From Rhodospirillaceae bacterium (GTDB taxonomy: Bacteria; Pseudomonadota; Alphaproteobacteria; SP197), in NCBI GenBank assembly GCA_002722885.1, contig PBNE01000011.1:2336-66335 (forward strand): a DNA stretch of 64,000 bases. Direction: 5' to 3'. The notes beneath the pieces are model-generated. The model saw only the letters and a list, made by a program, of their open reading frames with translations, made no database searches and was not told the origin of the DNA. Of the stretch, positions 38,232-44,527 are shown piece after piece. The translations under genes were made by a program, and so were the position numbers. Within the stretch, counting starts at the first letter, position 1, and every line of letters starts with the position of its first letter.

Positions 38232-38738
38232 CTAGGCAGTGCGGCTGTCTCCAGCCGCCTGGCCCGAACAGACCAGGAGTGCCAACCAGAAACCGTCTGC
38301 CTCGAACTTCACATTGTCGCCTGACCCGACCAGATGCCGAGTCAAGACAAACCCCAGGCCGTCCTGACGGTCGATGGTGAGACTCGGCGCCGCCTGCTTC
38401 AGCGCCGGGTCATGGATGTTCAGCACGCGCGACCCGGTCCGCACCTCCAGCCGGTGCGGTGTCTGAGGGCCGCAGGTCCAGAGCGAGCCGGCAGTCAGGT
38501 CAGACACTGCACTGCCGGCTTCATCGGTCCGCCGAACTGCCCCTTCCAACAGTACATTGGTTTCCCGGTGATTGCTGAAACACAGTCTCTAATCGAGATC
38601 GGCGTGGGCGTCGGCCTGGGTCACGATCAGGCTAAGCCCCTCGGCTTTCGTGAGATAACGCCATGAGGTCACAGCGCCATCGGTGCTCCTCCGGACCCGC
38701 CCCTCGGCTTCCAGCCACGCGGGCCTCAGATCGATCAC
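38232..38738 (-). pseudogene. decayed paralog of the EctC-like cupin gene, with an in-frame TAG and a truncated second module
   Basis: The GTG at 38738 overlaps the upstream stop (GTGA). MIDLRPAWLEAEGRVRRSTDGAVTSWRYLTKAEGLSLIV...DLD*RLCFSNHRETNVLLEG...WTCGPQTPHRLEV parallels the neighbour's modules. TAG at 38589-38591. Confidence 0.65.
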
Positions 38739-39574
38739 GCGCTGCCGTCAGGTCCTGCCGGAATCGGCCCGGTGGGCGGGTAGCCACCCTGGTCGTCGTG
38801 CCGTTCTGTGCCGTCGAGCGGCGGGTTGAAGACCGAGATCACATGGGAATCGACCAGCACCTTCAGGCGATGCTTGTCCCGGGGCCCCAAGCAATAGACA
38901 TCGCCGGTCACCAGATCATGCGTCTCGCCGCTCTCCCGGTCGGAAAGCTCGATCTCACCATCGAGCACGATGTTGGCCTCCCAGTGGTTGCGATACCACA
39001 GATCGACCTCGCGCCCGGCTTTGAACCGGACATCCGAGATCGCGACGCCCAGATTGTCGGCGCTGGTCAGCAGCTTGGCGAAGCGCGATCCGCCGTCGGC
39101 GCGTTCGACCGCATGGCCGGCCTCTTCGGCCATCGCCCAGGTCTTCACGAACATGCGCTCCTTGCCCTCGGGCGGCGTGCCGTTGGCGGGATAGGTGCCT
39201 TCCGCATCATGGGTCTCCGAGCCGACCAGCGGCGGATTGAAGACGCTGATGATGCGGAAACCCTCGTCGGCCGTGTTCTGGAGCTGGTGCCGGTCGCCGG
39301 GGCCGACGCAATACATCACGCCGGGCTCCAGGTCCCAGACCGTGCTGTTAGTCAGATCGGTCAGCGTACCGCTGCCCTGGCGGACATAGTTCGCCTCCCA
39401 GTGGTTCTTGTACCAGAGGGTCGCATTGCCACCGGGAACACCGCGCGCTTCCGAAAGGCTGAACCCCAGACCGTCGGACGCATTGAGCATACGCAGGGCG
39501 CCCGACTTGCCCTGGTTGATGACCAGCATGCGGTCGGGCTGTGCTTCCATCCATTCAAGGGTGCGGATCAGCAT
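38735..39574 (-). CDS. fused double ectoine-synthase-like (EctC-type) cupin protein
   Basis: 279 aa, two modules. MLIRTLEWME...LWYKNHWEANYVRQGSG...VFNPPLVGSETHDAEGTYP, then FVKTWAMAEE...LWYRNHWEANIVLDGE...VFNPPLDGTERHDDQGGYP. Both align by eye with EctC (YKHHFEAVYCIEGEG ... [20 protein letters not shown], from memory). Confidence 0.8.
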   Translation of the reverse strand: MLIRTLEWMEAQPDRMLVINQGKSGALRMLNASDGLGFSLSEARGVPGGNATLWYKNHWEANYVRQGSGTLTDLTNSTVWDLEPGVMYCVGPGDRHQLQNTADEGFRIISVFNPPLVGSETHDAEGTYPANGTPPEGKERMFVKTWAMAEEAGHAVERADGGSRFAKLLTSADNLGVAISDVRFKAGREVDLWYRNHWEANIVLDGEIELSDRESGETHDLVTGDVYCLGPRDKHRLKVLVDSHVISVFNPPLDGTERHDDQGGYPPTGPIPAGPDGSA

Positions 39575-39735
39575 GGCGGGGCTCCGTTTCGGTTGGGGGG
39601 CAAAGGGACTGGGACAGAACCATAAAGGTTGGTCGCACGTTCGTCACAGGTCTTTGGAGGTCGGGAGGTTTGTCAAAGCCTGCACGTTGAACGGTCTGAG
39701 CGAGATGGCGCGGTCCGTCGTGATGATGGTGCTGT

Positions 39736-42276: not shown

Positions 42277-43416
42277 ATGGTTCACAGGGTCGATCACGTC
42301 CCCCTCATGTCGTCCGGTCCGGGCACCCAGCGCTTTCTTACCGTCCATCGGTTTGGCACGATCGGCGCACGGCCCAAGCTCTACTTTCATGCCGCGCTCC
42401 ACGCCGACGAACTGCCGGGAACGCTGATCCTCAACCGCATGCTCGGCTGGCTGGCTGAGGCCGACTGCGAGGGTGCGATCACCGGCGAGATCGTCGTTCT
42501 CCCGATCGCCAATCCCATCGGTCTCTCCAACCGGATCATGGGCTATCACCTCGGCCGCTACGACCTCGACGGTGACGGCAACTTCAACCGCTGGTATCCG
42601 AACCTCGCCCGCAAGATCGCGGCCAGGGTCGGCAACAGTCTCACCGACGACAGGGACGAGAACACAGCTATCATTCGTCAGGCCAGCCTTGAGGCTGTTG
42701 AGGCCTGGCCCGGAGAAGGTGAGGCCAACACACTGCGCAAAACGCTGCTCGGCCTTTCGGTGGATTGCGACTTCATCTTCGACCTGCACTGCCATGGCGA
42801 GGCGATCCAGTACATCTACTTCCCCGAGAACCACTGGGAGCGCTACGGCGATCTTGCCGCCGAACTGGCCTGCCGAACCGTCCTGCTGTTCCCGACAGAT
42901 GAGGGCACCAACTTCGATGTCGCGAGCACAGTCATTTGGCATCATCTGCGCAAGTCCTTTCCGGACCGCCCGATCGCCGAGCCGCCCTTTACCACCACGG
43001 TGGAGCTGCGCGGCCAGAATGATGTGGGAGATGATACTGCCTTGCCGGACGCCGAAGGTCTCTGGCGTTTCATGCAGCGCCGTGGCGTCATTGCAGGCGA
43101 TCCCGGCGAACCACCGCCCTTGCTCTGTGAGCCGACGCCCCAATCGGGCTCCGACGATCTCGTCGCTCCTTGTGCCGGCGTGATCTCCTACCGTATCGCG
43201 CCCGGCGACCGGATTGCAGCAGGTGATGTGGTGGCCGATATCGTTGACCCGTCGGAACCGGACTTCGAGAAGGCGCGCACGCCAGTCATCAGTCGGGCGA
43301 CTGGTGTCTTCTACGGGCGGAATCTGAGCCGTCTGGTGCGGCCGGGCCAGTCCTTTGCCGTGATCTCCGGCAGCGAACCGCTTCCCGCCAACGATCTTCC
43401 CGTGATCGATTACTGA
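42277..43416 (+). CDS. succinylglutamate desuccinylase/aspartoacylase (AstE/AspA, DoeB-like) family deacylase
   Basis: 379 aa. LYFHAALHADELPG zinc motif and DLHCHGEA. Confidence 0.85.
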   Translation: MVHRVDHVPLMSSGPGTQRFLTVHRFGTIGARPKLYFHAALHADELPGTLILNRMLGWLAEADCEGAITGEIVVLPIANPIGLSNRIMGYHLGRYDLDGDGNFNRWYPNLARKIAARVGNSLTDDRDENTAIIRQASLEAVEAWPGEGEANTLRKTLLGLSVDCDFIFDLHCHGEAIQYIYFPENHWERYGDLAAELACRTVLLFPTDEGTNFDVASTVIWHHLRKSFPDRPIAEPPFTTTVELRGQNDVGDDTALPDAEGLWRFMQRRGVIAGDPGEPPPLLCEPTPQSGSDDLVAPCAGVISYRIAPGDRIAAGDVVADIVDPSEPDFEKARTPVISRATGVFYGRNLSRLVRPGQSFAVISGSEPLPANDLPVIDY

Positions 43417-43423
43417 GGCCGCC

Positions 43424-44527
43424 GTGACCCATTCTATCGAACATATCACACTGCCCACGGCCAGCCTTGGGACCGAGCGCAACGTCACGGTCCACCGCTT
43501 CGGGACACCGGGTGCGCGGCCCAAGGCTTATCTGCACGCGGCCCTCCATGCTCAGGAGCTGCCGGGCATCGTGGTCCTTGAACATCTCCAGAAGCGCCTT
43601 CACGAAGCCGACGCAGAAGGAAAGATCATCGGCGAGATCGCGCTGGTGCCGTTCGCCAATCCCATTGGGCTGTCCCAGCAGATCATGATGGAGGCCCAGG
43701 GGCGCTACGACCTCGATACCAACCGCAACTACAATCGTGGCTTCCCTGACCTTATCGGCGAGGTCGTCGAGGTCATTGCGGACAGCCTGACGGATGATGG
43801 GGACGAAAATGTCGCGGTGATCCGAACGGCTATAGGTACGGCTCTTGAAGGTCGCAAGGACGCCCGCGAGGCCGACGTTCTGAAGCTGCGATTGCTGCAG
43901 CTTTCCCACGACGCGGATCTTGTTCTCGATCTCCATTCGGCCTGGGAAGCTTTGCTGCACCTCTTTGTCACCGATGTGAACTGGCCCGATGCTGATGACC
44001 TCGCTCGGCAAATCGGTGCCGAGGTTGTGCTGGTCGACCGTGGCAACCGTATGATGACCTTCAAGTCGGCTCATGCCCTGCTCTGGAAGGAGGTGGCCGC
44101 CCGTTTCCCCGATCATCCCGTGCCGCCGGGGAGCCTGACCGCCGTGGTCGAACTGCGCGGGCAGCGCGATGTCGATGACCATCTCACGCGGCCCGACGCG
44201 GACAACCTCTATCACTGGCTCCAGCGGCGCGGCGTCATTGCGGGATCGCCCGGTCCGCTCCCTGAGGCCCGTTGCGAGCCGCGTTCGGTGGTAGGACTGC
44301 ACCGCCTCACCGCCGAAGCGGGCGGCATTCTCGTTTACCACCGGCAGCTCGGGCACGCCGTACGTGAGGGCGAGACCTTCTGCCACATCCTCGACCCCGA
44401 AACGGCCACGCGGACGCCGGTCACCGCGCCCATCGACGGTCTGCTCTATGCCCGTCGCAGCCACCGTTTCGCGCGCAAGGGGCAGTACTTTTGCGCCATT
44501 GCAGGTGACACGCCGATCGAGGGTTAG
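43424..44527 (+). CDS. succinylglutamate desuccinylase/aspartoacylase (AstE/AspA, DoeB-like) family deacylase, tandem paralog
   Basis: 367 aa. GTG start with GAGG upstream. AYLHAALHAQELPG and DLHSAWEA. Collinear with the preceding gene. Confidence 0.85.
   Translation: MTHSIEHITLPTASLGTERNVTVHRFGTPGARPKAYLHAALHAQELPGIVVLEHLQKRLHEADAEGKIIGEIALVPFANPIGLSQQIMMEAQGRYDLDTNRNYNRGFPDLIGEVVEVIADSLTDDGDENVAVIRTAIGTALEGRKDAREADVLKLRLLQLSHDADLVLDLHSAWEALLHLFVTDVNWPDADDLARQIGAEVVLVDRGNRMMTFKSAHALLWKEVAARFPDHPVPPGSLTAVVELRGQRDVDDHLTRPDADNLYHWLQRRGVIAGSPGPLPEARCEPRSVVGLHRLTAEAGGILVYHRQLGHAVREGETFCHILDPETATRTPVTAPIDGLLYARRSHRFARKGQYFCAIAGDTPIEG

Follow-up and report, generated by a model that had tools for sequence, protein, structure and literature searches.

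A fused double EctC-type cupin beside a group-V-like Rieske oxygenase in a candidate, partly decayed solute-catabolic island of a Rhodospirillaceae bacterium

Introduction

What compound could be processed by a gene cluster in which a protein resembling two fused ectoine synthases (EctC) is encoded beside a GcvT-fold enzyme, a Rieske oxygenase and a pair of zinc amidohydrolases? The question is raised by a stretch of 64,000 nucleotides from a Rhodospirillaceae bacterium (assembly GCA_002722885.1, contig PBNE01000011.1, positions 2,336 to 66,335 of the forward strand), referred to below as the window, which is of high GC content (~0.60-0.64) and carries the cluster at positions 38,232 to 44,527. 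A sequence-only reading had proposed that the cluster opens an ectoine-like ring with the EctC-like protein, deacylates the product and demethylates a methylated variant. The general part of this proposal holds: a catabolic cluster for a nitrogenous solute is still the best reading in view of the importer-flanked islands present in relatives, and the genes, i.e., five intact ones, a decayed EctC paralog and dead DppA and SBP_bac_3 genes, are all found where they had been placed.

The reading that we favour, at a probability of roughly 45%, is that the window holds a partly decayed copy of a catabolic island of a small clade of uncultured marine Alphaproteobacteria, that the core of this island is a module made of the Rieske oxygenase and the double-EctC protein, and that the island would encode a pathway leading from import of a solute to its processing by a short-chain dehydrogenase/reductase (SDR). 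Judging from the sequences, the solute is most likely of a cationic, N-acylated or cyclic-amidine type. In the best-supported version of this reading, the amidohydrolase pair, the GcvT-fold protein and the SDR are lineage-specific accessories. The five intact genes coincide with the open reading frames previously proposed for them, and their domains, as assigned with Pfam and NCBIfam, are as follows.

38735-39574, minus strand: fused double EctC-type iron cupin (bicupin) of 279 amino acids (aa), intact (PF06339 twice)
39736-40929, minus strand: GcvT-fold protein, 397 aa, presumably tetrahydrofolate-dependent, an accessory member of the cluster (PF01571 and PF08669)
40955-42142, minus strand: Rieske non-haem-iron oxygenase alpha subunit, 395 aa, group-V-like (PF00355 and PF00848)
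42277-43416, plus strand: CphZ-like zinc amidohydrolase type 1, 379 aa (PF24827 AstE_AspA; match to 8EIN)
43424-44527, plus strand: CphZ-like zinc amidohydrolase type 2, 367 aa (PF24827 AstE_AspA; match to 8EIN)

The AstE/AspA-family pair on the plus strand is thus divergent from the Rieske, GcvT and double-EctC genes on the minus strand, and all five core genes are full length in comparison with their orthologs.

The double-EctC protein

EctC proper (for example, that of Paenibacillus lautus, PlEctC; PDB 5ONM/5ONN; PF06339) is a single cupin of ~130 aa belonging to the ectABC(D) cluster. The 279-aa protein of the window is, in contrast, a two-domain fusion that mimics the head-to-tail dimer of EctC; unlike EctC, proteins of this kind are present in arrays of up to six diversified paralogs and their genes often adjoin a Rieske oxygenase gene. 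They are also distinct from the single-domain "orphan" or "solitary" EctC proteins described earlier (PMC5924519, PMC6344544). The window protein scores 202 bits against the NCBIfam model PRK13290, which is above the cutoff. Its two halves are 44% identical to each other, and each is 40-42% identical to PlEctC. An AlphaFold 2 model built from a 26-sequence alignment is a confident bicupin (predicted local distance difference test 92.9, predicted template modelling score 0.91), and when this model was compared with known structures by Foldseek, the hits were all generic bicupins (quercetinase, oxalate decarboxylase, ureidoglycine aminohydrolase) of 10-16% identity, which provides no functional lead.

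Proteins of the double-EctC family are ~277 aa long, and 295 clusters of them were detected at 90% identity, many of them large and many marine-metagenomic; the source databases, where they name these proteins, use "L-ectoine synthase". A scan of one genome per GTDB species revealed relatives in 176 species. The best 80 of these 176, which were used for the comparison of loci, are all metagenome-assembled genomes, of Alpha- and Gammaproteobacteria, Binatia, Rokubacteria/Methylomirabilota, Entotheonella and others. Among PLSDB plasmids no double-domain EctC was found, only single-domain ectC genes that were matched by both halves of the query. The literature searched (on EctC-like and solitary EctC proteins, on ectoine synthase together with Rieske enzymes, and on CphZ/AotO) contains no description of a fused EctC or of an EctC-Rieske cluster. 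The EctC-EctC fusion, the diversified six-gene arrays and the pairing with a quaternary-amine-type Rieske oxygenase thus appear to be undescribed in that literature, each of the domain families being known.

The roles of the PlEctC residues, both iron ligands and substrate or product contacts, have been established (PMC6344544). The metal triad Glu57/Tyr84/His92 of PlEctC is present in both domains of the window protein, as E60/Y88/H96 in domain 1 and E199/Y227/H235 in domain 2, and so is the C-terminal FNPP lid motif. Among 89 family members the iron ligands are kept in at least 93%, and the equivalents of Tyr52, Arg25 and Phe106 together with the triad and the lid motif in at least 92%, in both domains. 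The residues Trp21, Ser23, Asn38 and Thr40, which hold N-gamma-acetyl-diaminobutyrate (N-gamma-ADABA) and ectoine in EctC (PMC6344544), correspond to Ser/Ala/Ser/Ala in domain 1 and to Ser/Phe/Ser/Val in domain 2, and vary among paralogs. Since the triad is kept and the contacts to N-gamma-ADABA and ectoine are replaced, the protein may use an EctC-type metal site on a different substrate.

The altered pocket bears directly on the proposed ectoine link, according to which the EctC-like protein replaces DoeA in the degradation of ectoine, hydroxyectoine or homoectoine and the AstE-family pair are DoeB-type deacetylases. The domains do have the EctC fold with an intact iron site, CphZ and DoeB do share a superfamily and both hydrolyse N-alpha-acylated basic amino acids (PMC9974463), and the type 1 amidohydrolase retains the equivalent of CphZ Asp222, so that it may still bind a basic side chain; in addition, a related locus (L087) has a group II pyridoxal phosphate (PLP) decarboxylase nearby, whose best, far sub-threshold, model is diaminobutyrate decarboxylase. 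However, the four contacts are replaced in both EctC domains, differently in different paralogs, and the DoeB label given to the amidohydrolases does not survive comparison with the DoeB model TIGR02994, which matches the two proteins partially and with 18.0 and 29.4 bits against a cutoff of 402.7; their closest characterised relative is CphZ. Further, the scanned window genes match none of the DoeA (M24-type), DoeC/DoeD, EutABC and Ehu/Ueh families, the known routes of ectoine catabolism involve no Rieske oxygenase, and six diversified paralogs would be superfluous for a single solute. The changed pocket, the DoeB scores and the lack of a Doe or Eut family match among the scanned genes together make ectoine degradation very improbable. 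What the cluster and canonical ectoine catabolism (DoeABCD/EutABCDE, Ehu/Ueh) have in common is the logic of ring opening, deacylation and oxidation and the AstE/AspA deacylases; the Rieske oxygenase and the bicupin set the cluster apart. The SBP_bac_3 pseudogene shares its Pfam family with EhuB. The general chemistry of the earlier proposal, with a cupin acting on a cyclic amidine or an N-acyl-diamine an N-alpha-acyl-amino-acid amidohydrolase acting after it and N-alkyl groups being taken off oxidatively, is coherent.

The arrays of relatives provide an additional view of the cupin. Six consecutive double-EctC copies are present in L003 (4620-10861) and in the JGI contig carrying the protein P0002, five in L001 (1187-5189), and three each in L002 and L071. 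The copies are not recent duplicates, as each position in the array has its own pocket signature, common to L001, L002 and L003, and one paralog type is without the domain-1 metal ligands (E to K, H to Y). The window keeps only the last array type ("SEAR-type", signature S-A-R-S-E-A-R) and a degenerate frame. Judged from these sequence features, the double-EctC cupins are probably enzymes with diversified substrates.

Such arrays could also be read as biosynthetic, with the double-EctC proteins making cyclic-amidine solutes or natural products by cyclocondensation and the Rieske oxygenase tailoring them: in its physiological role EctC is a synthase, its iron site and lid motif are retained here, and arrays with varied pockets are akin to sets of tailoring enzymes. 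We find this hard to credit, because the syntenic loci contain no acyltransferase, ATP-grasp, EctA/EctB-like or exporter-type logic, and the neighbours are instead importers (SBP_bac_5, SBP_bac_3 and permeases of the ATP-binding cassette (ABC) type), hydrolases and oxygenases. Genes of the EctA or EctB type are likewise absent from the window genes scanned and from the Pfam-annotated related loci.

The Rieske oxygenase and its pairing with the cupin

The closest solved structures to the Rieske protein are CntA (5e-32; ~115 bits) and then Stc2 (2e-28), and its best NCBIfam model is GbcA, with 129 bits against a cutoff of 670. The Rieske centre motif CLHRMSILLEGTGNKKFVTCPYH (CxH-X(15-20)-CxxH) is present, and the catalytic motif NFMESYHLFQLH contains the bridging Glu and both His of the mononuclear iron site. 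As in group V (CntA, choline monooxygenase, OxyBAC, GbcA/BmoA, Stc2), the enzyme appears as a lone alpha subunit of about 390 aa, with no beta subunit gene near the alpha gene; unlike in group V systems, no gene for a CntB/GbcB-type reductase is adjacent. By structures, GbcA model and motif, the protein is placed nearest to the quaternary-amine group V and is best called group-V-like. The position of CntA Tyr203 is occupied by Phe within NFMESYHLFQLH, as in the OxyBAC-type clade Va, which is defined by an aromatic residue at this position (cation-pi binding of ammonium), whereas the demethylating clade Vb has Asn (PMC7948474). In characterised enzymes, the group Va signature is tied to C-N cleavage or hydroxylation rather than to demethylation, and the simple demethylation that had been suggested for the cluster is not supported.

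To compare the neighbourhoods, genes in the 80 loci were called with a codon log-odds model trained on calls from three loci and were then clustered. A Rieske alpha gene lies immediately upstream of the double-EctC gene on the same strand in 15 of the 71 loci with a called anchor and is the sole specific recurrent neighbour; any Rieske gene is found within the fetched flanks in 22 of the 80. The paired Rieske genes belong to at least two subfamilies in different bacterial classes. Proteins of the window type are 70-83% identical to the window Rieske in L043, L059, L061, L062, L066, L072, L076 and L080, though the cupins of these loci are only 43-46% identical. A second subfamily stands beside the cupin in Gammaproteobacteria (L009, L010, L021, L030) and has the full CntA-like motif NYSECYHCPNQH, including the Cys pair discussed below. 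A TauD-family dioxygenase accompanies the Rieske/cupin pair in ~10-13 loci.

The fullest island is that of the P0002 contig, where amino-acid-type ABC permeases, an MFS transporter, an SDR and the CphZ-like pair stand on one side, and the divergent side consists of the Rieske gene, a gene for a small cupin and then six for double-EctC proteins, with a Dpp-type ABC system after them. The distant locus L010 has a parallel layout, with SDR and MFS genes divergent from the Rieske and cupin genes, after which a Dpp ABC system follows. L002, L003 and the P0002 contig share the synteny of the CphZ-like pair, the SBP_bac_3 gene, the SDR gene and the cupin array. The co-conservation expected by the sequence-only reading is thus borne out for the Rieske/double-EctC pair in several lineages and for the AstE-family pair in the closest clade, and fails for GcvT, which is not part of the core (3 of ~80 loci).

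Cultured orthologs of the Rieske oxygenase that are 58-60% identical occur in Paracoccus, Caballeronia and Paraburkholderia, with an adjacent LysR regulator and without an EctC-like gene; at the Caballeronia locus, a full PotABCD-like importer stands beside the ortholog. Neighbours common to the loci of Paracoccus alcaliphilus p429813 (L089) and Caballeronia sp. NK8 pNK83 (L090) are LysR, PotABCD-like ABC components, a flavin adenine dinucleotide (FAD) oxidoreductase, RidA, DUF1028 and an ArgE-like deacylase, a set that looks like an uncharacterised amine-catabolic cluster in culturable strains.

Other neighbours were seen at single loci or a few of them. L009, L010 and L021 encode a flavin amine oxidase, and L010 and L021 also an arginase-family ureohydrolase, a few kb from the pair of CntA-like Rieske and double-EctC genes (L010:3114-5566), and L087 has an arginase-family gene and urease genes within 10 kb. 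A general polyamine theme was considered and rejected, as genes fitting it are limited to few loci (PotA-like, Aminotran_3 and Peptidase_C26 genes in L088, a PotD-like binding protein in L061-type loci, arginase-family and amine oxidase genes in L010). In the window, a short protein with the catalytic domain of MetE (Meth_synt_2, 343 aa; 32363-33394, minus strand) is encoded 5 kb from the cupin, and is 49% identical to the product of L088:10929-11972, which lies immediately downstream of the double-EctC gene of L088.

The CphZ-like pair and the GcvT-fold protein

The two adjacent amidohydrolase genes encode proteins that are 42.5% identical to each other. Both match the structure 8EIN of CphZ from Acinetobacter baylyi (AbCphZ) over the full length, type 1 with 1e-62 and 36% identity and type 2 with 2e-70 and 37% identity, at 215 and 241 bits, respectively. 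CphZ hydrolyses the cyanophycin dipeptide (beta-Asp-Arg/Lys), and the roles of its residues are known (PMC9974463, where the numbering is the chain index plus 9). The Zn ligands H50/E53/H179, the catalytic E251 and the carboxylate clamp R102/N112/R113 are kept in both proteins and in all 10 aligned orthologs. The pocket is changed in type 1 by D181H, E223V and K366V, with D222 kept, and in type 2 by D181A, D222K, E223S and K366A, and each pattern is constant across the six loci that carry the pair. In CphZ, D222 and E223 form an acidic pocket for the Arg/Lys side chain, and D181 and K366 serve the Asp moiety (PMC9974463).

The pair could in principle be true CphZ enzymes that use cyanophycin dipeptides, with the other genes of the cluster unrelated to them. 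The full-length similarity to AbCphZ, the complete set of catalytic residues and a cultured homolog (46% identity) that adjoins arginine-deiminase genes speak in favour of it. Yet both paralogs depart from CphZ at its specificity residues, these departures recur in six loci, and mutation of D222 or E223 abolishes the activity of AbCphZ (PMC9974463), which is why a true CphZ function was rejected and beta-Asp-Arg/Lys use is to be regarded as very improbable; no cyanophycinase or cyanophycin synthetase gene is found near the pair. Presumably, to go by the kept clamp and the altered pockets, these CphZ-like enzymes free an amino acid from a substrate of the N-alpha-acyl or isopeptide kind that is not beta-Asp-Arg. 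In comparison with CphZ/AotO (PDB 8EIN/8EIP), the family and the catalytic set are the same, and what differs is the arrangement as paired paralogs with two distinct altered pockets. Since CphZ is a homodimer, a heterodimer of type 1 and type 2 may be envisaged by analogy. The contexts of the cultured amidohydrolase and GcvT homologs are unrelated to the cluster.

The best NCBIfam match of the GcvT-fold protein is the tetrahydrofolate-binding C-terminal region of the trimethylamine N-oxide demethylase Tdm, at 184 bits against a cutoff of 1100; the GcvT models give 171.6 bits against 300 and 133 against 235.85, and DmdA 159.6 against 410. It is similar to T-protein (1e-42), Tdm (1e-33) and DmdA (2e-29). 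As it falls below every equivalog cutoff, the protein is, by the NCBIfam cutoffs, not a housekeeping T-protein. It shares both GcvT domains with T-protein, DmdA, Tdm and the sarcosine/dimethylglycine oxidases, and differs from these in being a stand-alone protein encoded between the Rieske and cupin genes.

Decay of the cluster in this genome

Around the five core genes, the window contains the following features.

37940-38149, plus strand: DppA-type (SBP_bac_5) stub, only about the first 70 codons
38232-38738, minus strand: degenerate EctC-like paralog that directly follows the double-EctC gene, its frame interrupted by a TAG (38589-38591)
44559-45305, minus strand: SBP_bac_3 binding-protein pseudogene with three in-frame stops
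45395-46147, plus strand: SDR, 250 aa, conserved beside the CphZ-like pair in L002 and the P0002 contig
46144-46848, plus strand: MFS transporter pseudogene with an in-frame stop (46360-46362) and a 3' truncation
46859-48097, minus strand: class-V PLP enzyme, 412 aa, cysteine-desulfurase-like (VC1184 family)

The degenerate paralog shares ~29% identity with each of the two EctC domains and no longer has the equivalents of Tyr52, the metal-binding Tyr and Phe106. Its codon 38589-38591 reads TAG here; four near-identical marine metagenome contigs (L081-L084; 99.8% DNA identity) have GAG instead, and in them the frame is open for 168 codons. The DppA stub is 67% identical to residues 3-72 of the intact 537-aa SBP_bac_5 protein of L004. 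A full Dpp-type ABC operon is present in L003 and L004, and everything beyond the stub is deleted in the window; the flanking synteny (a GST gene and a dihydroorotase-like gene) shows that the operon was lost by deletion. The counterpart of the MFS gene is intact (423 aa) in a related contig, and the SDR next to the CphZ-like pair in L002 is 79% identical to that of the window. All four transport genes in or beside the cluster are dead.

Compared with the four sibling contigs, the five core genes have 6 synonymous and 2 non-synonymous differences, and the three pseudogenes 3 synonymous and 6 non-synonymous ones, the stop/Glu polymorphism included and two variants in the alpha/beta hydrolase gene (37031-37834, plus strand) excluded. 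These counts fit continued constraint on the enzymes, the numbers being far too small to be firm. By its sequence, the window copy is what remains, after degradation, of a larger island, and up to five cupin paralogs and all nearby importers have been lost from it. With one surviving cupin paralog and four dead adjacent transporter genes, the pathway appears reduced in this genome, and is either reliant on other transporters or on its way to loss.

As to the genes missing from the cluster, the sequence-only reading was correct in that the scanned window genes include no DoeA match, no Rieske reductase and no regulator and that the cluster has no intact transporter; its statement that a transaminase is missing has to be qualified by the class-V PLP enzyme at 46859-48097 (minus strand), which, however, scores as cysteine-desulfurase-like and not as a transaminase. 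The gene for this enzyme is syntenic with the cluster in L005 and L087, at 80% identity, and its membership in the pathway is uncertain. On the other flank of the cluster, the product of the alpha/beta hydrolase gene scores 287 bits, above the cutoff of 255.85 of the 3-oxoadipate enol-lactonase (PcaD) equivalog, and a gene of the carboxymuconolactone-decarboxylase family stands beyond the PLP gene (48420-49010, plus strand) and is also syntenic in L005 and L087. A scan of 37800-48300 for promoters and terminators gave counts at chance level, which says nothing on operon structure.

A proposed pathway and its weighing

We infer a reaction order, a direction for the cupin and the nature of the substrate from the parts list, the conserved residues and the gene associations described above, and the pathway may be pictured as follows. 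A small cationic nitrogen compound, peptide-like or N-acylated, would be imported; the importers of relatives comprise ABC systems of the Dpp and amino-acid types as well as an MFS transporter. The Rieske oxygenase would hydroxylate the carbon beside a quaternary or methylated nitrogen, leading to C-N cleavage or dealkylation, and in some genomes the GcvT-like enzyme could capture the released one-carbon unit with tetrahydrofolate. The double-EctC cupins would then perform a reversible addition or elimination of water at an amide or cyclic amidine of substrates other than ectoine and N-gamma-acetyl-diaminobutyrate, with different paralogs possibly taking different substrate variants. The two CphZ-like amidohydrolases might split the N-alpha-acyl-amino-acid or isopeptide intermediates to give an amino acid with a free carboxylate, and the SDR might process the resulting alcohol or aldehyde.

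Several observations weigh against this reading. Some concern the chemistry. CntA and Stc2 have a pair of Cys next to the catalytic iron (PMC10952381), and the window Rieske and its 70-83% identical orthologs have Ser and Leu in place of this pair (Cys206/Cys209); since the pair is present in only some members of group V, it is a supportive rather than a defining feature. The sequence does not tell a cupin that hydrolyses from one that cyclises, and the double-EctC family is without a characterised member or a named substrate. No Rieske reductase partner and no regulator are present among the scanned window genes, and, as the nearby importers are all dead, the pathway may be non-functional in this genome. 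Others concern the gene set. GcvT is found in only 3 of ~80 loci, i.e., the window, L003 (72% identity) and L032 (28%, adjoining the double-EctC gene). The CphZ-like pair, which is limited to the closest clade (window, L002, L003, L005, L006, L007), and the Rieske gene are linked to the cupin independently of each other, as L006 and L007 have the pair without an adjacent Rieske gene and L043-L080 have the Rieske gene without the pair. Two censuses counted 132 and 152 different Pfam families among 148 neighbours each, most loci having unrelated neighbours, and this heterogeneity means that the double-EctC family, taken together, is not bound to any one operon.

It is therefore necessary to ask whether the genes share a pathway at all or are independent catabolic genes in a decaying and rearranging region. 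The heterogeneous cupin neighbourhoods and the scarcity of GcvT are what such an account would predict, and so are the four pseudogenes in and around the cluster, the other decayed transporter genes elsewhere in the window, and the fact that the nearest characterised relative of each enzyme comes from a different pathway. We nonetheless hold it to be unlikely, because the same-strand adjacency of Rieske and cupin genes recurs with two Rieske subfamilies and in different bacterial classes, because the CphZ-like pair, SBP_bac_3, SDR and cupin array keep their synteny in L002, L003 and the P0002 contig, and because L010 has a parallel layout. For GcvT and the flanking genes the adjacency may be due to chance, an account that is hard to square with the repeated pairing of the cupin with the Rieske gene.

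The catabolic island with a Rieske/double-EctC core, which we prefer, can be taken one step further. The double-EctC proteins might be an undescribed family acting together with a quaternary-amine-type Rieske oxygenase, whose arrays open or form cyclic-amidine or N-acyl-diamine metabolites of a novel class of marine nitrogenous solutes, such as acylated diamines, or ectoine analogues that are methylated or of betaine type. In this extended form the idea is rather doubtful.

Other genes of the window

Elsewhere, too, the window is rich in genes of a type seen in the metabolism and uptake of methylated amines and osmolytes: a homocysteine S-methyltransferase-family gene, genes for an old yellow enzyme-type flavin mononucleotide and FAD oxidoreductase, for a 496-aa PhyH-domain protein and for a PotD/F-like SBP_bac_8 protein, and a TAXI-TRAP transporter (509-1444, 4340-6349, 9970-11460, 24072-25199 and 50295-53774). 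The PhyH-domain protein has weak similarity to ectoine hydroxylase, at 60 bits against a cutoff of 336. A further decayed transporter is suggested by the open reading frame 11863-12681 (plus strand), which resembles a deletion chimera: over residues 23-199 it matches a truncated OpuAC glycine-betaine binding domain, and over residues 195-271 an internal segment of ProV-type ABC ATPases. A stretch of lower GC content at 18000-22000 (0.53-0.56 versus ~0.62) contains an intact aldehyde dehydrogenase gene (19534-20928, minus strand), which the codon model missed owing to its composition. The best sub-threshold models of its product include the HpaE, betaine-aldehyde and aminobutyraldehyde dehydrogenases, and it is 39% identical to the aldehyde dehydrogenase of L059, L061 and L062.

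Implications

For the source genome, the finding is a modest one, that of a reduced remnant of an island without its transporters. For the protein family, it reaches further. EctC is the diagnostic marker for ectoine producers, and annotation pipelines name the 277-aa double-EctC proteins "L-ectoine synthase"; if, in line with their pocket residues, these proteins act on another substrate, a sizeable and widespread protein set is mis-annotated, and the counts of ectoine producers that rely on this marker are inflated. What orphan EctC-type proteins do is acknowledged to be an open question (PMC5924519, PMC6344544). The repeated pairing with a quaternary-amine-type Rieske oxygenase and the six-paralog arrays flanked by importers provide a testable entry point to it, and if the double-EctC proteins do act on a novel class of marine solutes, this would give the "orphan" EctC-type proteins a function.

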